In this document: positions 53,857 through 63,817 of the stretch, in pieces | Position numbering within the stretch: the stretch's first letter is position 1 | Layout of the letters: every line of letters begins with the position of its first letter | From: an uncultured delta proteobacterium | GTDB taxonomy: Bacteria; Desulfobacterota; Zymogenia; Zymogenales; Zymogenaceae | NCBI GenBank assembly: GCA_963792965.1 | Contig: CAWBYW010000016.1 | Location: 96,001-160,000, forward strand | DNA length: 64,000 nucleotides | Reading direction: 5' to 3' | The notes under the pieces: model-generated | The model's input: only the letters and a program-made list of their open reading frames with translations | Databases searched by the model: none | What the model was told of the DNA's origin: nothing | Translations under genes and position numbers: made by a program

Positions 53857-54504
53857 TCAGGGCAACCGTTCCCCCCGCGTGGACGCCCGGCCCTGCCCCC
53901 CGATAACCTTTACCGCCTCCTCATAGGCCAGCACATACCCCCACCGATTTTTCTCCCTGTCCGTCCGCTCCGAAAGGAGCGCGTCGATCTCGCCGGTGTT
54001 CCGGGTGACGGGCTTGGGTCCCGAAAGGCCCTTTTTCAACGCGTCGATCTCGCCGGCATAGTAGACCGCGAGTCCCTCCGAAAACCAGAGCGGCACGTGG
54101 GTGCCGAAACGAAGCCGGAGAAGCGCGAGACACACCTCATGGGCGACGGTCGACTTCAACACCCCGCGCTCTTTCAGGACGTTCACCGGCTGCAGGTAGA
54201 TCGATCCGTCGATCATCGCCGAGGCCGACCAGAACGGCAGCCTCGTCTGGGCCGTGAAATCTCCGGTCTCCTTGAAGATCACCACGTCGATGGGACGGCC
54301 CGCGCCGCTCCCAACCCTCGTTTCCATCGCGGTGTATGCCGATTCGAGGGCGTCCTTTACCTCCGAGAGCTCGCCGGCCCGAAGGGTCTCGGCGAAATAG
54401 ATATTGAAATGCCGTGTCTGGGTCTGGGCAAAGTCAAGGGCGCCTGCCTCTCGGCTGATGACGAGAAGAAGGCACGAGATCAGAAATAGGAACGGTCTTC
54501 TCAA
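53857..54504 (-). CDS. Exported peptidase MA-like protein with degenerate zinc motif
   Basis: Signal peptide; TVAHEVCLA (HExxH with the second His replaced by Leu) and PLWFSEGLAVY. Confidence 0.75.
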   Translation of the reverse strand: MRRPFLFLISCLLLVISREAGALDFAQTQTRHFNIYFAETLRAGELSEVKDALESAYTAMETRVGSGAGRPIDVVIFKETGDFTAQTRLPFWSASAMIDGSIYLQPVNVLKERGVLKSTVAHEVCLALLRLRFGTHVPLWFSEGLAVYYAGEIDALKKGLSGPKPVTRNTGEIDALLSERTDREKNRWGYVLAYEEAVKVIGGQGRASTRGERLP

Positions 54505-55529
54505 TCCGTATGCACGCCTCCGAAATAGACGCGGAAAACCTCCCGGGCCACCGGCGCGGCATCCTCACCCCCCCGGCCGTGGTAGAGGAAGACGACCACG
54601 GCGATCTCGGGGTTCTCGGCGGGGGCAAAACCCAAGAACCAGGCGTGAGTCGCCCAGCTGGAGCCGAGGAACTCGCCGGTGCCGGTTTTGCCCATAATCT
54701 CGTGCCCGTCCGGCGTCCCCTTGACGGCGGTTCCGTACGCCGCCGCATCGCGCATTCCCTCGGCGAGGATCGGCGCCGCGCGGGAAACCTCTACCTTCCT
54801 GTTGAGTCTCGGCGAAAATGAACCGATATCGTCTGCGGTGGGGGTCACGCGGGGAACCCAGATACTGCCCCCGTTCACGAGGGCCGAAAGATTCACGATC
54901 ACCTGAAGGGGCGTCGCCGTGACGTTGTCGGTGTCTCCGATGACATACTCACGGGCAAACGCCGGCTCGGGGGGGATGAGCCTTCCCGCCTCCTCCTGTG
55001 GAAGGTTGACCCCGGTCTTTTCTCCAAACCCGAGCTCGGAAAGCCCCCGGTAGGTGGTGTCGGCGCCCAGCGTCTCGGCAAGGGAAAGGAAATAGAGATT
55101 ACACGAGTAGGCGATCCCGCGGACAAGGTTGAGATCACCGTGTCCGGGGGGGTACCAGCAATCGTATTTCGTTCCCGATATAACGGCACTCCCGGTACAC
55201 CTGAAGCGAGCGTCGGGAGAGATACGCTTCTCTTCGATCCCTTTCCAGACGCTCACAAGCTTGACGAGCGAGCCGGGGGGAAAGGCCCAGCGTGTCGCCA
55301 TGTCGGGCCCCACCATCGCTCTGATGCGTCCCGTCTTCACGTCCATGACGACGACCGCCCCGGTCCGGCCCGCCAGGGCGTCGGATGCCGCGCTTTCGAG
55401 GAGGGCGTCGCCTTTCAACACCTGTTCCGGGCCCGGCCTGCAACCCGAGGCGAAGAGAAATAAAAGGGCGACCCCCCCGATGAGGGGTCGCCGAAAGAGT
55501 AAACGAATCCGCCGCCGGATCCCCGTCAT
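54501..55529 (-). CDS. Penicillin-binding transpeptidase-domain lipoprotein
   Basis: Lipobox ASGC; SxxK (PGSLVK), SxN (YSCN), KTG (GKTGT), AWFLGFAP. Confidence 0.9.
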   Translation of the reverse strand: MTGIRRRIRLLFRRPLIGGVALLFLFASGCRPGPEQVLKGDALLESAASDALAGRTGAVVVMDVKTGRIRAMVGPDMATRWAFPPGSLVKLVSVWKGIEEKRISPDARFRCTGSAVISGTKYDCWYPPGHGDLNLVRGIAYSCNLYFLSLAETLGADTTYRGLSELGFGEKTGVNLPQEEAGRLIPPEPAFAREYVIGDTDNVTATPLQVIVNLSALVNGGSIWVPRVTPTADDIGSFSPRLNRKVEVSRAAPILAEGMRDAAAYGTAVKGTPDGHEIMGKTGTGEFLGSSWATHAWFLGFAPAENPEIAVVVFLYHGRGGEDAAPVAREVFRVYFGGVHTD

Positions 55530-58500
55530 TTCCCCTCGGTGATGACAAGGCTTGAGCTTCCCGTCCTTCCGAAGCGGTCCGGGAAGTACATCAGGTACGC
55601 CTCGGCCGGCATGACACCGTAGGTCCCCGGGTTTTGGGCGCGGAGGATATACTTGAAGACATAGGTCCCCACGTCGACGTAGTCCATCGATAGAGCGATC
55701 CGCTCATCCCGGAATTCCCTTCCGGCAAACCACCAGTCCGCATCGCCGGTATAGAGATCGTCCCCGGAGATGACATAGTTTTTATCGTCGCTGATGGCCT
55801 CATAGCCCGCCGGGTAGTAGTCCTCCAGCAGGAAGTATTGGGCCTTCTTGTCGGTCGTGACCGAAAGCTCCACGAGGATCTCGTCCCCGCTACTGACCGG
55901 GCCGCTGAGCGGCACCTTCGCGTAGATGAGCTCTCCCTTCTTGGGCACCTTCTTGAGGAGGTAGTACTTTCTGCTCACGGCAAATCCGGCGTTCAGCGGG
56001 GCTATCGAGGGGGCCGCGCTGTAGTGCGTGAAGGTCGAGGAATAGTAGAGGCTACCCGGCCCGTCCTTCTTGATGACGATCGTATTGGGGCCGGTCTTGA
56101 GATCCCCTTCCTTGACGGTAATCGTTCCCCCCTCGGTGAGCATCGTCTCCTTGGTGATGTGGCTCTTCTTGAGCTGTTTGCCGTTGAGGGTAAGCGTCAT
56201 GGTGTAGTTCGGCTTGATCTCCCCGGTCCGGGTGATGTAGTCCGTCAGGGCATAGATGATCTTCCCCGTGGCCTTGGTGGAGCGCCAGTAGCTTCCGGTC
56301 CGGTTGATGATAAGCCAGCGGATCGTCTTGGGGATGAGGGGATTATTGACGTCGCGCATGGCCATCACCCGCAAAACGTACGCGGTGGTCTCCAGGGGAT
56401 CGGCCTCCCAGTCCCACCAATAGAAGTCCTCTCCGACGTAACCCCAGTGAACATAGCCGTTCTCCTGGATCTTTTCCTTCATGAGCAGGTCATACAGGAC
56501 GTTGGCCTTCTCCCGGATCCCCTCGTTCTCGTAGGCCAACAGCAGCATCGCCTGAGAAATGGGGGTGAGCTTGTCGCGCTTCTCGAACATCTCGTCGAGC
56601 CACGCGGTCTTGAGCTTGTCCGTGTAGGACAAGACGTAGAGGGCGTAGACCTTGACGGAGTCCTGATCGATCTTGCTCAGCTGAGAGATGAGGGACGCGG
56701 TGCCGCGCTTGATGACGCCCTCGTCCACGGTGATGGGAATGCCTGCCTCGGGAAGGAGGCGTTTCGCTTCGAGGAGCCCGTACAACACGTAGGCGGTCAT
56801 GTAGGGATCGGTCTCGTCGAACTCGTACCACCCCCAGCCGTTATCGTCGTGCTGCCGTTTGTAGAGCACCATGAGCCCGCTCTTGATGTAGGCGGGGAGG
56901 TCCTTCTCTACGCTCTTATCGGAAAGGTCAAGCTTCTTTAATACCGACGCGACCATGACTGATGGCAAGAACCTTGCCATTACCTGCTCGTTTCACCCAT
57001 AGGGGTAGCCGACGAGGAATGGTATAGCGGCAAGCATTGTGTTGACGAGCGATGGACTGGTGGTAATGGTGAGCTCAGCAGCGTTCTTTATCGTGTTGGC
57101 GGGCTTGTTGACCGTCACCGTGAGCGTCCCGGAGTCCTTGATGATCTCTCCCATATCGTTCTTTGTCTCTTTGATGCCGAGCGGGAGGATCGGCACCTTT
57201 ATCTCCATTCCGTCGGAGACCTCGTTGGTCATCGCCTTTGCCGTGAGAACGGCACTTCCCACGAGGTCCGCCCTGACGTGCCAGTCGACGCGCTTCTCTC
57301 CGTTTTTCGGGACGATTGCATCGACCGGAACGCCGGAAGCGAGCGTCAATCCCTTTGCGTCGAACGTGAAGTGCACCTTCTTGTCGGTCGACAGGTAATT
57401 ATGGGCGATGGTGGAGATTACGAGGTCGTCCCCCTGGCGCAGAAATCGCGGCGCCTCTATGCGGACGAGTAAGTCCTTGCGCTCGATGACCCGGTAGGTA
57501 GTCTCCCCCATGCTGTCGCCCGTGGTCACCCCCCGGACCGTCGCACGCCAACGCGTCAGGTTGTCCGGGAAGGTGACGGTGACCGTGGCCATACCCTTTG
57601 CGTTGGTCGTGATCGTGGGCGACCAGTACATCGTGTCCTTGAAGTCCTTTCGGATCAGCGGTTGAACGAGCGTGTCTCCCTTGAAGTCGGCAAGCTTCGT
57701 CTCTTTTTCCGGAAGTCCCGCCAGGAGTCCTTTCCGGTGAGAGTATCCGTAAAAGCGGAAGTAGAGGGATGACGACGTGTCCACGGAATGATAGCGCAGC
57801 GAGTAGAAATACTTCTGGATTTCGTCGACAAGCTCCGGTGAGATGGCGTAGATGGCGTCGTCCACGACGCCGAGCGACACCTCTGCCGACACGGGTTTGC
57901 CTGTGCTGTCCGTCGTCTTTATCGTAAAGGTGCCCTTTTCTTGCGGCTCGTACGTCGCCTTATTGGAGGTCACCTCGACGTTGATGAACTTTTCGGTCGG
58001 TGGGATGATGATGTTCTTGCTGTCCGAATAGAGCTCATCGTTGAAGATCGCGGCAACCGAGAGGTAGATGTTGGGGGTGTATCTCTCCTTTATGGGGAGA
58101 TCCAGCATCGCCGTGCCACCCGTGGCTTTGATGACTCGGCTATCAAGGATCGAGTCTCCCTCGGTGGTAATCAACAGATAGGTATCCTTCACCGGCGCGG
58201 CGATCAGGATGTGGGCGGTATCGCCCACCGCGTAGGTATCCTTGTCGGGGATAATCGTGACGCCGCCCTCCGACGTCCCGCCGTAGGCATACCCCTCCGT
58301 AAAGGAATACGATGAGTCCTTGGCCGTGGTGGAGTTGCCCGCGTTATCGAAGACCGTGGCGATGAAATTGACGTCGCCCACGTTTTTCACCGTATATTCG
58401 ATGACGGCGTCCCCACCGGAGTTCGTCCTTCCCGAAAGGGTGGCCGAGCTCGTGACCTTGCCCCCCTGCCAGTCGGTCTCCGTGACGATGAGCGTCACCG

Positions 58501-60166
58501 GCACATTCGCCACACCCTTGTTGTCAAAGTCGGAGACGTTGACCGTGATCCGCGCCTTATCCCCCGGCGCGTAGACCCAGCGGTCGGGACGTAGCGAAAC
58601 GGTGTAGTTTGACCGAACGACCTTGACGACGCTGCTGGTGGTAACCACCCGGCGCGAGAGATCGGTAACGTTGGCCTCGATGGTGAAGGTATAGTCGTTG
58701 TCGGGCGACTCAAGGTATTGCGACGTGTCTACCGTGAGCCTGAGCTTCCCGGCGTTGTCGAGCATAGCCGTGCCACTGTCCACCATGACCTTCTCGGTGG
58801 CGGTCCAGTAGTCTTCGTCCATGAAGTACCAGCCCCAGTCGTACCCCCACCACCAGGGGCGCTCGTAGACCGACCGGTAGACCGTATAGTCCACCTTGGC
58901 CTCCGTTACGGGGCTGCCGAAGTAGTAGCCCGCCTCGATATCGGCCGTGATCGTGTCGCCCCGGATGTAGACGTTCTTATCCGTCCTGATCTTGACCTCG
59001 TATTCGGGCTTCTTGTACTCCTCCACCTTGAAGCTGTTGTAGTAGTTCTGTCCATTCAGTCCCACGACGATCTGATATTCGCCGAGCGAGGGCTCCTCTC
59101 CGAGGGTGAAGTCCCCCGAGAGGCTCCCGTACTTATTAATCTTATAGTTGTTCCGGAAGACCTCGTCGCCCTTGGCGTCGTCGATGATGACCAGGTAGTC
59201 GTCGCCGGTGTCGGGAACCTTCAGCCCCGAGTCGGTGGCGTTTCTCAGGATCGAGCGAAAATGCACCGTGTCGCCGGGACGGTAGACGGGTCGGTCGGTG
59301 TAGGTGTAGACCTTGTCGCTTGCTTCCCCTTCCCCGTAGGCATAGGGGTCGGCCAGGGTGAAGTTCTCGCCGTCCTGGGCGAAGACATAGATGACGTCAC
59401 TCTCGGTCGCTTTCACCTTGGAGTAGTAGATCCCGTCGGAGTCCGTCTTCCCCTTGAAGAGGAGTTTTTTCTGGTTGTCGTAGACCGATACCTTAACGCC
59501 TTTCATCGGTTTGCCGGTTACCCGGTCGGCCACGTAGATAAGGCTGTCGGTGCTCGAGTTCTTCACGACAAACGACATGGGGGTAACGACGACCATCGTA
59601 TAGGCCACCGAATCCTCAAAGACCGCCTCGACGAGGTAGCACCCCGGTTTCGGGACTTTGACGTCTATGTTGTGGTACTCCCACTGTCCACTGCCCGAGA
59701 TGACCAACTTCTCCTGCCAGCGGTTGAGGAGCTTGAACTGGGTCAGGATCGGGAAGAGCTCGTAGGTCTGTGGCGCGGGTGAGACGGGCTCCTGGGCGTG
59801 CGGCAGGCCGAGTGCCGAGACGACATCGTCTCGGATGTTGTCGGAGAGTTTTGAGCGATAGTCGTCCCGGAAGAGTTCTACCCCCTTCCGTTTGATCGCC
59901 CCAACCATCTCGGCGGGGGCCGATGTCCCCCGTTTCGTCGTCACCACCGGCGAGTGGACGTCATCGAGCCCGAGGAAGTACGATTTCGGATCGTCTACCC
60001 GGTAGAGCCGGATATCGAGGGACGGGACATCCATGGAGGAAACGGTGACGGTGACGGGCTCCCCCGGAGCGAAGATCTTGTCCGTGGAGAGCTCAAAGGA
60101 GCCTGCGAGCGTCACGGCCGGCAGTGTTAAGAGCAATACGATCGAAAGAATAAGGGACTTTTTCAT
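55526..60166 (-). CDS. Alpha-2-macroglobulin, 1546 aa, with in-frame UGA (putative Sec1058) in the thioester motif
   Basis: Signal peptide; YTDRPVYRPG, EEYKKPEY, SLGVVDDA, RKDFKDT.YW, PDNLTRW, YPYG-TGA-NEQ, QHDDNGWGW, YWRSTKAT. ORFs 56993-60178 and 55526-56980 are in the same frame, separated only by TGA AAC GAG CAG GTA. Confidence 0.9.
56962..56980 (-). promoter_or_regulatory. Putative bacterial SECIS hairpin
   Basis: mRNA UGA-AACGAGCAGGUA-AUGGCAAG-GUU-CUUGCCAU: a perfect 8-bp stem begins 12 nt after UGA; its apical AGGUUCU resembles the E. coli fdhF SECIS loop AGGUCU. Confidence 0.72.
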
Positions 60167-60409
60167 AGTTTCCCTCAAAGAATGGAGTATATCGTTGTTT
60201 GGTCTGTCACCGTGAGAGTGCGCGGCGACCGCGGCAATCCCCGGCTGTCGTTACCGATACGGAGGTAATAAGGATCCTTCCTCGAGAATCAGGGCTCGCC
60301 TCGTTGTGCCACATCGCCTGGCCTCCCACGATTCGGGCAGGAACGTTCCCCTGCAATGACCGAGAAGAGCTCCCACGATACTTTGGACCTCAAAAGCACC
60401 TATAAAGCT

Positions 60410-61507
60410 TTAGTTCAGTATCTTGAACCGATAATAACCCAAAAAATGGTCGTTCTCTCTTACCGGCCGCCAGCGCTCGTCCGGATGCACTTTGAGCGTG
60501 GCGAGCCTGACCTTCCTCACGTCCCCGTTATCGTGGGAGCGCGGGCCGGTGTGATAGACGAGCCAATCTTCGTTTACGTCCGAATCGCTCTCCTTTCCCC
60601 ACTCGCCGAGGTAGATCATCATATGGGAGGGCATCCGGGGGTTTTCCGGGTTGAAGAAAAAGAGGAGATCACCGGGAAGAATACCCTTCTCGGTTCGCCC
60701 GAGGAACACGACGTTGTACTGAAGCAGCGCCTCGGCCGATGCCGCCGCAGAAAAGTTGACGCCGATATCGGAAGGGACAAACGGCCCCGGCGCCGTCCGA
60801 AAGACATCGACTCCCAGCAGCGGCACGTGGGGATAGGTGTACTTCTTCACGTCGGGATTTGCGGGGCTGACCAGCGTCGCGTAGGAGGAAAAGAAAGCGT
60901 CGTCGTGGCGCTTGAGCGCCTCGACATAGGCAAAACGCACAAGCCCCGCACAGTCCCGGTTGATCTGGTCCCAGTGGCGGTTCTTCTCGTAGACTTGAGA
61001 TTCCGCGATGGCGCAGAGCCACCGCCGGAAGTTGAGGCGGTCTGTGTCGCCGAAGAGCTCCACCACATCGGGAAACCCGTCCCCGTCCCGGTCACGCATG
61101 TCGGGGATAACATTCACCTGTGCCCGGGCAGGCGCCACCCCCGGAGACTCGGCCCGGATCGTGAGGTCACCCGTCTCGAAGGTCGAGATGAGCGTGAGGG
61201 AGGCCGTTCCGCGGACAAACGCGAGCGGTCCTGTTTCCACCCTTGTCGTCGCCGGGCCGACAAGCGTCACCGTAAGGGGTGCGCCGCAGCCGCGCGCAAC
61301 ATTCCCCCTGTCGGTCTTTGCAAGGATCGTGATCTCCACGGTATCTTCCTTGTTGGCCCAGAGCGTCTGCTTTGACACGGCGATCTCGATGCTTTTGGCC
61401 TTTGCGCACGACGTGATCAAACAGGCCAACAGGAGCGTCGAAAGGATCGCCGCTCCGCCTTTAATCCAGGTCCTTGACCCTGATCTTAAACCCGCCTTGA
61501 ATTGCAT
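60410..61507 (-). CDS. DUF1175 (YfaT-like) lipoprotein with N-terminal Ig-like domain
   Basis: Lipobox LITSC, Ig-like region, DRDGDGFPD, FRRW..IAE.Q, RDCAGLVRFAY, PGDLLFF, HMMIY, YHTG, W.P...N.HFLG.YR; exact start uncertain. Confidence 0.85.
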   Translation of the reverse strand: MQFKAGLRSGSRTWIKGGAAILSTLLLACLITSCAKAKSIEIAVSKQTLWANKEDTVEITILAKTDRGNVARGCGAPLTVTLVGPATTRVETGPLAFVRGTASLTLISTFETGDLTIRAESPGVAPARAQVNVIPDMRDRDGDGFPDVVELFGDTDRLNFRRWLCAIAESQVYEKNRHWDQINRDCAGLVRFAYVEALKRHDDAFFSSYATLVSPANPDVKKYTYPHVPLLGVDVFRTAPGPFVPSDIGVNFSAAASAEALLQYNVVFLGRTEKGILPGDLLFFFNPENPRMPSHMMIYLGEWGKESDSDVNEDWLVYHTGPRSHDNGDVRKVRLATLKVHPDERWRPVRENDHFLGYYRFKILN

Positions 61508-63204
61508 CACCGCTGAAGTTGACCCCCCCGTAGCATGAGACAAAAGATCTTCTGGTCAGTTCCACGAGCGGCACGAGCCGCTTTTCCGAATCCTGGTAGA
61601 GAAAGTATTTATAGTTTGCCGAGATGTTGACGAGATAACCCTCGATCAACGACATGGCGTTGTTCCCGTCTACGTAGAGATAGAGGTCGTAGGCGTCTTT
61701 CGGCATGTCTTTTTGCGCCGAGATGAACGCGGGCGACTTCACGAGAAAATCGCGGTCAAAAAGGCCGCCCGCCCCCGTCATCGAGGAAATAACAGAGAGG
61801 TCGTTGAGCTGCTCCATCGTCGAAAGGTCCCAGAAGAGGAAGAGCCTGTCATCCTTGAGCGCAAAACCAGGATTAGGCTTGACGGAGGCGACGTACGACG
61901 TCCCGTTCCAATCGAGGCTCTTTTCCCTGAACTGGCCCATATAGGAGATGTGAGCGGCGTCAAGCTCGAGGGGAGACGGGCCCGCATCTGAAGAATGAAT
62001 AGCTGTAGAGCTTGCCGATATTGGTGGAAAGGGCCTCTTCTTTGCCCGGTGCCACCCCAACGGAGGCGATCGTCCTGAGGTACGGTTTTTCTCCCTCATA
62101 CCCGATCCCGACGAGGGCCGCCAGCGCCCCCCTGCCGAGGTTGTTGATGATTCCACCCTCCAGGTCGAATCCGCCCTTGTCCTTCCATTTTTTCAGGATC
62201 GAGATGTAGTTTACCTTTTGGGCGATGTCGGTAAACCAGACCTTCCCGAAATGGGTATAAAGGATGCCGGGGTCGAAGGCCCGAAACGCCACGAGCGCCG
62301 CCGTCTCGCCGGGCATCGCCGATAGGTCTATTGTCGCCTTATCGGAGAGCGACCCCAGCCCCGCCAGGAGGCTTTTCCCCTCGCCCCCGGTGTAGGGGGC
62401 AAAGAGCGTGATATCCGCGCCGGCCTCGGAAAAGGTGACCGAGAAAAGGAGCGCGTCCGTCCCCTTGAGAAGCCGTCTGGCATGGGCGACGATGCCCATC
62501 TCGGAGTCATCGGGGCTCATCGCCTTCGTTGAATAGAAAAGGATATGGTAGTCCTTTGGCAGGTGGGAGAGCCGATCCATGACGGCGGGGTTTCCGGAGA
62601 GGTTCTTTGGGTTTTGCCCCGTAACGATGTCCCACTCGGATTTGAAGAGATCGGGGGAGTCGGAGACGATCGTATAGCCTTTGACGTTCTTGTAATAGAT
62701 CTTCTTGTCTGTGCTCGCGACAACCCAGACGGAATAGGAGCCCCAGTTTTCCTTCGTCACGTGGCTCGAAAAGATCGAAAAGAGGTTGATGAGAAAACCC
62801 TTAAACCAGCCCGTCTCAAGCAGCGCCGCCGAGGCCTCCTTTCCCTCGAGGGTCGTCCGATAGAAGACGGCCCGCGCACCTATGACCCACAGGAAGCGTT
62901 TCAGGGTCGGGCGAATCCCGGTCATCTTCTCGATAGTCCCGAGCCTGGAGAGCATCGGGGCCGAGAGGTCGCTCTTGATCGGGCCCTCAAAGAGCGAAAG
63001 ATCGCCGACTTCATCAAAATAATCGCTTGAGAGCAACGGCCTCAATCCTGCCCTGAGGTCCCTGAGGTAGACGAAGGAGTCTACGTTCTCCGGGATGATC
63101 TGATAGAGCTCGTAGGCGTCTCCGGCCACGGCACTAAGGGCCCCAAGCGAAAGGGCCGCGATAACGACCGCGCCGATCAGACATGCCCTGATCTTAGATC
63201 TCAT
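61461..63204 (-). CDS. Exported hypothetical protein (positionally YfaA/DUF2138-like); frameshift near 61985
   Basis: Signal peptide MRSKIRACLIGAVVIAALSLGALSAVA; ORFs 61960-63246 and 61461-62156 join; sits just upstream of the DUF1175 and A2M genes. Confidence 0.65.
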
Positions 63205-63223
63205 GAATCCCTCCTTTTCTCCG

Positions 63224-63817
63224 CTATCGGCCGATGGGGCCCGCAAATGACTCGGGATCGGCCCCCGCCCGGAGGATCGTATTGTAGTACCTCAGCGTGA
63301 CGATGTGAATCACCCGCTCGCGCATAGTATCGGGGGTCGCCTTCATGAGAGCGGGGAGGTCCTTGTAGAAATCCTTCAGCGACTCGTTCACGTCGCTCTT
63401 CATCTCGGGCGTCGGCGCGCCGGCACGACCGAGGCCCGGAGGTTCTTGTATTCGTCCCACTCGGCGTCAAGGATGACGTCCAGCGCGTCTCCCACGGCAC
63501 CTGTGTCCGTCCCGCCGGGCTGGCTGTAGTCCGTACCCGACGGCGTCTCGGAGACCGTGGGAGGCACAAGCATCCTGGTCCCGGGCGGCGGCGATCATCT
63601 CCCACTCGTGGCGAGGGACGTCCGGATCTCGCTTTTGCGGCTTGGGATAGCCCGCCTTGATCTGATCGATCGCAAGGGTAACGTCGGCAAAGACCCCCCC
63701 GACCTTCGGACCCTTCTCTCCGGGCGCGGGCGCCTTTTTTTCGCAGGCCCACGAGAAGATCAAGAGAAACGAGAGGAGCCCAAGAATCGGCCAGAGCAGT
63801 CCCGGTCGGGCGCTCAG
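63224..63817 (-). CDS. Hypothetical lipoprotein, two frameshifts, start uncertain
   Basis: Hydrophobic leader with FSWAC lipobox; fragments rejoin as ...DVILDAEWDEYKNLR...MKSDVNESLKDFY...PIGR*. Confidence 0.55.

Follow-up and report, generated by a model that had tools for sequence, protein, structure and literature searches.

Bacterial selenocysteine insertion sequences (bSECIS) are stem-loops that lie inside an open reading frame (ORF), directly 3' of an in-frame UGA. As set out in a 2026 inventory of 119 selenoprotein families (PMC13188914), the bSECIS model combines a loop of 3-9 nucleotides (nt), a stem of 4-16 base pairs (bp), a UGA-to-loop distance of 16-37 nt and a minimum free energy (MFE) of -7.5 kcal/mol or lower, with a G among the first two loop positions that is usually followed by G or U. 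For the fdhF element of Escherichia coli, PMC8659212 describes an upper stem-loop located 11 nt from the UGA, with G23 and U24 in the loop, and with U17 and G23 as contacts of SelB. The other systems of relevance here are the protease-trapping alpha-2-macroglobulins (A2Ms) with a reactive cysteine (Cys) in a CxEQ motif, namely the type I bacterial proteins (E. coli YfhM/ECAM, structures 5a42 and 4ziq; Salmonella, 4u48) and the insect protein TEP1 (2pn5). Both subjects come together in the 64,000-nt stretch analyzed in this work (hereafter, the window; positions 96,001 to 160,000 of contig CAWBYW010000016.1, assembly GCA_963792965.1), which belongs to an uncultured delta proteobacterium of the family Zymogenaceae. 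In this window, an A2M gene carries an in-frame UGA exactly where the thioester Cys is expected, and the UGA is followed by a short hairpin that is very probably a bSECIS embedded in the A2M coding sequence. Counting the U of the UGA as nt 1 and reading the minus strand, the parts of the locus are the following:

55526..60178, minus strand: A2M gene, 1550 codons on read-through of the internal UGA, with a signal peptide
56995..56993, minus strand: in-frame UGA at the thioester Cys, the proposed selenocysteine (Sec) codon (residue 1062, motif GYPYG-U-NEQ)
56992..56981, minus strand: 12-nt spacer AACGAGCAGGUA between UGA and stem (AAC GAG CAG GUA, codons for N-E-Q-V), from the sequence
56980..56973, minus strand: 5' arm AUGGCAAG, nt 16-23, with an in-frame AUG at its start, from the fold and pair counts
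56972..56970, minus strand: apical loop GUU, nt 24-26, in which G24 is a synonymous third position
56969..56962, minus strand: 3' arm CUUGCCAU, nt 27-34, from the fold, pair counts and RNAalifold
56961..56995, minus strand: 35-nt invariant block from the UGA to nt 35, identical in all family-type TGA orthologs

The hairpin consists of a perfect 8-bp stem closed by a 3-nt loop. A sequence-only reading of this DNA had placed at 56962..56995 a perfect inverted repeat with a GU-containing apex, starting 12 nt after the UGA and with its loop some 19-20 nt away, and the minus-strand sequence and the fold bear out each of these particulars, the distance from the A of the UGA to the loop being 20 nt. 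In the fold of the 60 nt from the UGA, a check that the reading had proposed, the hairpin is present (-16.6 kcal/mol, z -2.67), and only 2 of 200 shuffled sequences fold equally well; the segment from nt 9 to 48 gives -9.8 kcal/mol. A conserved lower helix including the UGA found no support in the 60-nt fold or in RNAalifold. Moreover, the codons GCA, TTG and CCA had been singled out as atypical for the gene, and they are indeed rare: in the long ORFs of the genome, GTA, GCA, AGG, TTG and CCA make up 0.10, 0.09, 0.18, 0.06 and 0.06 of their codon families, the A2M gene has a G+C content at third codon positions (GC3) of 0.82, and the peptide ARFLP would be jointly encoded as GCA-AGG-TTC-TTG-CCA with a probability of about 4e-5. 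Taken as a single sequence, the hairpin stands out beyond chance only weakly; that it is more than a chance structure follows from the comparison of homologs described below, and not from the single sequence.

When set against the bSECIS model of PMC13188914, the hairpin falls within all four ranges, with a 3-nt loop on an 8-bp stem, a G in first loop position followed by U, a distance of 20 nt and an MFE of -9.1 kcal/mol for the 19-nt hairpin alone. The start of the upper stem about 11 nt after the fdhF UGA and the loop GU read by SelB, which the sequence-only reading had put forward as precedent, agree with PMC8659212. Next to the 17-nt minimal upper stem-loop described therein, the A2M element starts at a similar distance (12 nt) and also shows G-U in its apical loop, with an offset of 1 nt in both. 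In common with bSECIS elements at large, it sits within the ORF directly 3' of an in-frame UGA and has a small loop starting with G and then U, but it differs from them in its minimal triloop and in a host gene that is missing from the catalogues searched. The loop of fdhF is GGUC, and differs from the GUU of the A2M hairpin. As judged from these features, the A2M hairpin is fdhF-like in the way it would work, and no copy of the fdhF element.

Under translation table 11, the A2M gene appears as two adjacent ORFs in the same frame of the minus strand, at 60178..56993 (1061 aa) and 56980..55526 (484 aa). Reading through the UGA joins both ORFs, by translation, into a single A2M of 1550 residues, in which 488 further codons remain open after the UGA; the true stop codon of the gene is a TGA as well. 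The joined protein matches the Pfam domains bMG3, MG2, bMG5, A2M_BRD, A2M, TED_complement and bMG10, all above their cut-offs, and the TED_complement match (residues 1050-1161) runs across U1062. In a search of PDB, the UGA residue aligned with the Cys of the GCGEQ motif of TEP1 (2pn5), and the bacterial A2Ms 4u48 and 5a42 were also matched, although all of these matches are distant (E 5e-12 to 4e-4). The macroglobulin, bait and thioester-domain (MG/bait/TED) architecture is common to the window's protein, to the type I bacterial A2Ms and to TEP1, as are the signal peptide, the G-x-x-E-Q motif and a penicillin-binding-protein gene in the neighbourhood, and the difference lies in the UGA that takes the place of the reactive Cys codon. 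As encoded, the CxEQ motif with its reactive Cys is not found: the motif reads U(TGA)-N-E-Q, with E and Q in place. An A2M with U-N-E-Q would resemble its family in function only if Sec is inserted, and the implied reading of the locus is that Sec has replaced the reactive thioester Cys.

We then focused on the orthologs within the family. An A2M ortholog is present in all nine other genomes of the family, with TGA at the codon in question in seven of them and TGT or TGC in two. With the window's own genome included, TGA and hairpin occur together in 8 of 10 genomes, while the two with TGT or TGC are devoid of the hairpin. All eight family TGA genes agree in every one of the 31 nt that follow the TGA. 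In the Cys orthologs, the corresponding codons are GTG ATG TCG CGS TTC CTG CCG, so that the stem is destroyed and Ala becomes Ser, and GAA or GTG codons are found in the spacer, unlike in the TGA orthologs. Ten distinct TGA sequences of family type, some of them from metagenome contigs, were put into a codon alignment of 1566 nt. Their pairwise nucleotide identities are 0.66-0.83 (0.90 for one near-identical pair), and 42.5% of the alignment columns and 11.8% of the third positions are invariant. The longest invariant run extends for 35 nt from the T of the TGA, and the runner-up for 7 nt; likewise, segments of 10 codons starting at the UGA or one codon later have 10/10 invariant third positions, as compared with at most 5 in segments clear of the block. 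The spacer, too, is invariant in these ten sequences, synonymous sites included, and a search for a conserved pairing partner of its 12 nt found none. In the window and in L061, L074, L078, L081 and L089, the synonymous sites of the spacer were observed to be fixed within each clade, as AACGAGCAGGUA here and as AUUGAGCAAAUC in the Armatimonadota-type clade. Elsewhere in the gene, synonymous divergence is near saturation (proportion of synonymous differences, pS, 0.53-0.74). Judged by these alignments, selection at the UGA block is shown to target the RNA and not the protein. In addition, the ratio of nonsynonymous to synonymous divergence (dN/dS) takes similar values on both sides of the UGA, 0.10-0.22 upstream and 0.08-0.31 downstream, which indicates that the frame continues to be translated after the UGA, with purifying selection acting on it.

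To place the Cys forms, a quick maximum-likelihood tree was calculated (LG+G4; support by the Shimodaira-Hasegawa-like approximate likelihood ratio test, SH-aLRT, only), from which L027, L028, L090 and L124 were left out. The family forms a clade with SH-aLRT 100, and the two Cys forms lie apart within the TGA clade: one is the sister of a TGA metagenome sequence (SH-aLRT 100), and the other falls within the clade that contains the window's gene (SH-aLRT 99). Their separate nesting indicates two independent replacements of Sec by Cys, with loss of the hairpin each time, and the family therefore offers a clean natural experiment, in which the hairpin decayed after each of two independent reversions.

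Beyond the family, a degenerate pattern, P-[YF]-G-TGA-x-E-Q-x-x-x-R-F, was searched in the genome collection and a slightly tighter one in metagenomes. The former retrieved 17 places: 8 hold real macroglobulin genes, and the other 9, which lack an open frame, match by chance. Six of the real genes belong to the same family (with titles such as Thermodesulfobacteriota, 'delta proteobacterium' metagenome-assembled genomes (MAGs) and Candidatus Zymogenus), one to a Planctomycetales MAG and one to an Armatimonadota MAG. The tighter pattern retrieved 14 metagenome contigs, all 14 with real macroglobulin genes. Protein searches around the two MAGs, which are free of pattern bias, added L089, L109-L111 and 36 Cys homologs. 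The Planctomycetales and Armatimonadota genes preserve the register of the hairpin exactly: the stem reaches nt 23, and the loop is formed by G24-U25-U26.

Covariation was evaluated on a set of 19 sequences, 16 of them distinct. The pairing positions are complementary in 87.5% of cells, against 34-55% when the partners are slid; double-change cells number 7, against 2.0 in shuffles (0/500 shuffles reach 7); and the covariation score reaches 0.222, while shuffles average 0.099 (0/500 reach 0.222). Compensatory changes are found at pair 20-30 (CG to GC, in three distinct rows) and at pair 22-28 (AU to CG, in four), and L089 has A23-U27 as its closing pair, so that the covariation proposed by the sequence-only reading as a check on TGA homologs is present at three pairs. 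RNAalifold, run unguided, returned the same 6-bp core (nt 18-23 paired with 27-32), and the G-U pairs U17-G33 and G21-U29 are consistent with the coding-strand RNA only.

The comparison of TGA and Cys homologs, from which duplicates and the second subfamily described below were excluded, comprised 22 and 37 distinct sequences, respectively. At least six contiguous pairs closing GUU in register are present in 18/22 TGA sequences, whereas no Cys sequence has more than two contiguous pairs. The mean local MFE is -9.2 kcal/mol for the TGA set and -2.2 kcal/mol for the Cys set, and nt 24-26 are GUU in 21/22 TGA sequences vs 8/37 Cys sequences; U25 and U26 sit in a Phe codon that the Cys homologs conserve too. 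The sequence-only reading had named in advance what would overturn its SECIS inference, namely a hairpin equally present in Cys-encoding homologs or absent from other TGA homologs, and the inference came through this comparison: the hairpin is kept in TGA homologs (18/22) and lacking in Cys homologs (0/37). Between the UGA and the AUG, moreover, E and Q are kept as residues while their codons differ among clades, which indicates that this interval is translated.

A second macroglobulin/TEP-like subfamily, with the motif LPYG-U-FEQTSSVTYPN (hereafter FEQ), also carries TGA at the thioester Cys. It was found in Planctomycete relatives, as ten cases (L128-L137) in eight genomes (G106, G109, G122, G125, G132, G138, G140, G142). 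Its UGA is followed in most of the ten by a different and longer predicted hairpin, with whole-fold energies of -17 to -29 kcal/mol in nine; L133, at -10.8 kcal/mol, does not have such a stem.

As for the machinery for Sec insertion, the genome holds selB (363.8 bits, cut-off 242.25), tRNA-Sec (72.9 bits; called SeC with anticodon tca by ARAGORN) and a selD of the Sec type, with an in-frame TGA of its own. SelB genes above the cut-off were also found in the Armatimonadota and Planctomycetales MAGs. TGA closes 426 of the 1035 long frames of the genome and is its commonest ordinary stop, so that a genome-wide reassignment of TGA is excluded. Scans of the genome for TGA plus hairpin were noisy, with 547 and then 482 candidates, of which 58 were left after a six-frame coding filter. 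Five other TGA-bearing genes have hairpins with GG or GU as first loop bases, the loops starting at nt 22-36 (18-32 nt past the codon). One is selD, whose element is likely a second and more distant hairpin with the loop GGUCA at nt 36-40; the remaining four are probable further selenoprotein genes by their sequence:

G000:C3:13201-14991 (L032): UshA-like PCGU selenoprotein fused to a multihaem cytochrome (NF041198, 506.6 bits)
C7:686193-687194 (L037): shorter paralog of the UshA-like PCGU protein
C13:188393-189394 (L039): GrdB/PrdB-like UxxC protein, with a triloop GUG on a 7-bp stem
C26:14855-15865 (L041): DUF3179 UxxC protein

The elements of these genes resemble the A2M hairpin in how their loops start, but their stem sequences are unrelated to it. 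In-frame TGAs were also observed, with no convincing hairpin, in a GFO_IDH_MocA C-terminal domain (L034, G000:C5:56157-57242) and in a TetR C-terminal domain (L040, G000:C18:49749-50345), and these may be errors, pseudogenes or TGG-to-TGA changes.

Overall, the hairpin is read as a SECIS because it fits the bSECIS model, because the RNA is under selection and covaries across phyla, because it is lost together with the Sec codon where Cys is encoded, because the frame is translated beyond the UGA, and because selB, tRNA-Sec and selD are present. Nevertheless, a number of observations weigh against this reading. The window contains 12 perfect 8-bp hairpins with loops of 3-9 nt, where block shuffles give 4-13 (mean 9.35), and the MFE structure of a 140-nt segment is formed without the hairpin (z -0.18), its 5' arm pairing instead with an upstream GCUUGCC. 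(This competing motif, from the codons of M-L-A-A and complementary to the 5' arm, is located at about 57027-57035 of the window, on the minus strand.) A scan of window positions 56700-57200 against Rfam gave 0 matches by E-value. With respect to fdhF, as described in PMC8659212, the GU is shifted by 1 nt (nt 23/24 in fdhF vs 24/25 in the A2M hairpin) and the bulged U17 is missing from the perfect A2M stem. The patterns through which part of the TGA set was collected fix nt 23, 25 and 26, and limit nt 22 to A or C and nt 27 to C or T. Pairs changed on both sides are 2, vs 1.4 in shuffles, and 244/500 shuffles reach 2; the tool itself cautions that kin sequences may outscore shuffles without any structure; and, since the hairpin is invariant within the family, the covariation rests on few deep clades. 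The conservation in TGA homologs and absence from Cys homologs hold save for 4/22 TGA sequences without a clean hairpin in register (L075, L084, L109, L110). Among these, a GUUU loop on a stem of 4 bp is seen in L075, as in L077, and an outer stem of 5 bp, with two mismatches, in L109 and L110. In the metagenome contig L084, the local codons resemble the Cys type and the stem is lacking at this place; a stem of 7 bp closed by a GGUC loop spans nt 29-46, and may be a SECIS that was placed independently. Finally, selB is no discriminator among the Planctomycete relatives, as it is found in 8/11 genomes with a TGA-A2M vs 23/30 without one, and the selA gene of the window's genome is broken.

The state of selA is the basis of one alternative, which we consider unlikely: the A2M gene would be a fossil selenoprotein gene, whose SECIS worked in the lineage, in a genome where selA is really inactive, so that the UGA now ends translation or is decoded by another tRNA at low level, while the gene heads for decay or for reversion to Cys. 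SelA lies about 8 kb from the A2M gene, in conserved synteny, and scores above the cut-off in 9/9 relatives (in G005 as two pieces). In seven of the ten family genomes selA and the Sec-macroglobulin gene were seen to be syntenic neighbours (G000, G001, G002, G003, G005, G007, G009), and in three they are on different contigs (G004, G006, G008). Here, selA is split into at least five frame pieces, none of which reaches the curated cut-off, and has six 1-nt insertions when compared with five relatives. If real, such breakage would leave the genome unable to make Sec-tRNA; a second selA was not found in the 88.85%-complete assembly, and two relatives show that replacement of Sec by Cys does occur in the family. 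However, the frameshifts go beyond selA. Because alignments with blastn to relatives (about 70-75% identity) were too gapped for counting insertions and deletions, tblastn was run gene by gene, and at least three neighbour genes within about 8 kb were found to be frameshifted as well, while the 4.65-kb A2M gene and others are intact:

window 61461-63291, minus strand, and past the window end (G000:C16:157.4-165.4 kb; L054:10464-18375): frameshift cluster, with six 1-nt insertions in selA, a 624-aa gene split (window 61461-63291), a 301-aa gene with 1 shift and a 555-aa gene with 2

As the cluster is local and made of insertions only, in otherwise well-conserved coding sequence, the frameshifts, those of selA included, are probably an assembly error in a poorly polished stretch. 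Assemblies of relatives in few contigs show similar breaks, and a related metagenome contig is one base shorter at the frameshift site L054:17527, a weak point given its depth of about 2x and its origin from a related strain. Contigs from public sequencing runs, at about 2x depth and with patchy cover, neither confirm nor contradict the TGA; among the runs with this stretch there was no RNA run, and the DNA runs share only 0.11 and 0.06 of words. It also speaks against an inactivated system that selD keeps its own TGA, and that the A2M hairpin and the frame downstream are intact.

Somewhat less probable still is a selected RNA structure with another job, be it a pause site, near-cognate read-through of the UGA as Trp or Cys, or termination followed by reinitiation at the AUG of the 5' arm, to yield a separate C-terminal protein. 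Stop-proximal hairpins can promote read-through, the in-frame AUG that opens the 5' arm starts the 484-aa table-11 ORF, and three genomes with a TGA-A2M had no selB at E 1e-60. Against this explanation stands the translated interval between UGA and AUG, with E and Q conserved as residues while codons vary; moreover, the AUG is replaced by UUG or CUG (Leu) in L109-L111 and is absent in the FEQ subfamily, and a split would leave the reactive residue and its Gln partner on separate chains, and would break up the thioester domain. The loop base, spacing and energy agree instead with the SECIS model and with the other selenoprotein genes of the genome. By far the least probable explanation is that the hairpin is a chance by-product of encoding the peptide M-A-R-F-L-P-S, next to a TGA that is an error or a pseudogene lesion. 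It could draw on the near-chance number of 8-bp hairpins in the window and on the in-frame TGAs without good hairpins in the GFO_IDH_MocA and TetR genes, but it does not account for the recurrence of this TGA in 8/10 genomes of the family and in two further phyla represented by MAGs, for the improbable codon choice, for the 35-nt invariant run amid near-saturated synonymous change, or for compensatory changes in a stem found in 0/37 Cys homologs. On these sequence comparisons, namely the distribution of TGA, the covariation, the invariant run and the Cys homologs, a chance hairpin is already contradicted.

If the hairpin does work as a SECIS, its role can be pictured as follows. With the ribosome at the UGA of the thioester Cys, the mRNA channel would be occupied by the 12-nt spacer, leaving the G24-U25 loop and its 8-bp stem at the channel entrance. 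The loop would then be bound by SelB-GTP-Sec-tRNASec, bringing Sec to the A site, and translation would proceed through the thioester domain to give the full-length protein, in which U-N-E-Q replaces C-x-E-Q. The stem is made up of codons for the first helix of the thioester domain, and appears to force Ala or Gly at a place that is mostly Ser in Cys homologs. Owing to this overlap, RNA and protein would constrain each other, with Ala or Gly accompanying Sec, and Ser appearing after reversion to Cys.

The genes on both sides of the A2M gene are the following:

54501..55529, minus strand: downstream operon partner with a penicillin-binding-protein (PBP) transpeptidase domain, overlapping the A2M stop codon (Pfam PF00905, 158.4 bits)
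60410..61543, minus strand: DUF1175 gene, upstream of the A2M gene (Pfam PF06672, 206.4 bits)

Such flanks are typical of a macroglobulin neighbourhood. The locus differs from those of the CxEQ A2Ms in that the partner gene has the transpeptidase domain only and a DUF1175 gene is found upstream, a combination that we take to mix traits of both kinds of bacterial macroglobulin operon.

Regarding novelty, no link between bacterial selenoproteins and macroglobulins was found in the literature searched, subscription papers lying outside its coverage. The terms 'macroglobulin', 'A2M' and 'thioester' are absent from the main text of the 119-family inventory (PMC13188914), from the main text and one supplement of BSepDB (111 families), and from deep-Sep, and NCBIfam holds no model that matches the A2M protein. 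By its sequence, the A2M appears to belong to an as yet uncatalogued selenoprotein family, with an element that is genuinely of SECIS type by every comparative test available. Standard gene callers break UGA-bearing A2M genes into two ORFs. What Sec would do at the thioester position is a more tentative matter: it may form an intramolecular Sec-Gln selenoester warhead, a non-redox use in a covalent trap, which a common SECIS architecture would maintain in three phyla or more, and which in Planctomycetota would extend to the FEQ subfamily with its different and longer hairpin, a proposal to which we give slightly less than an even chance. To our knowledge, nearly all known selenoproteins are redox enzymes, and Sec in a thioester trap would, if true, be a different kind of selenoprotein chemistry. 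If the SECIS described here is real, it adds alpha-2-macroglobulins to the bacterial selenoproteome.

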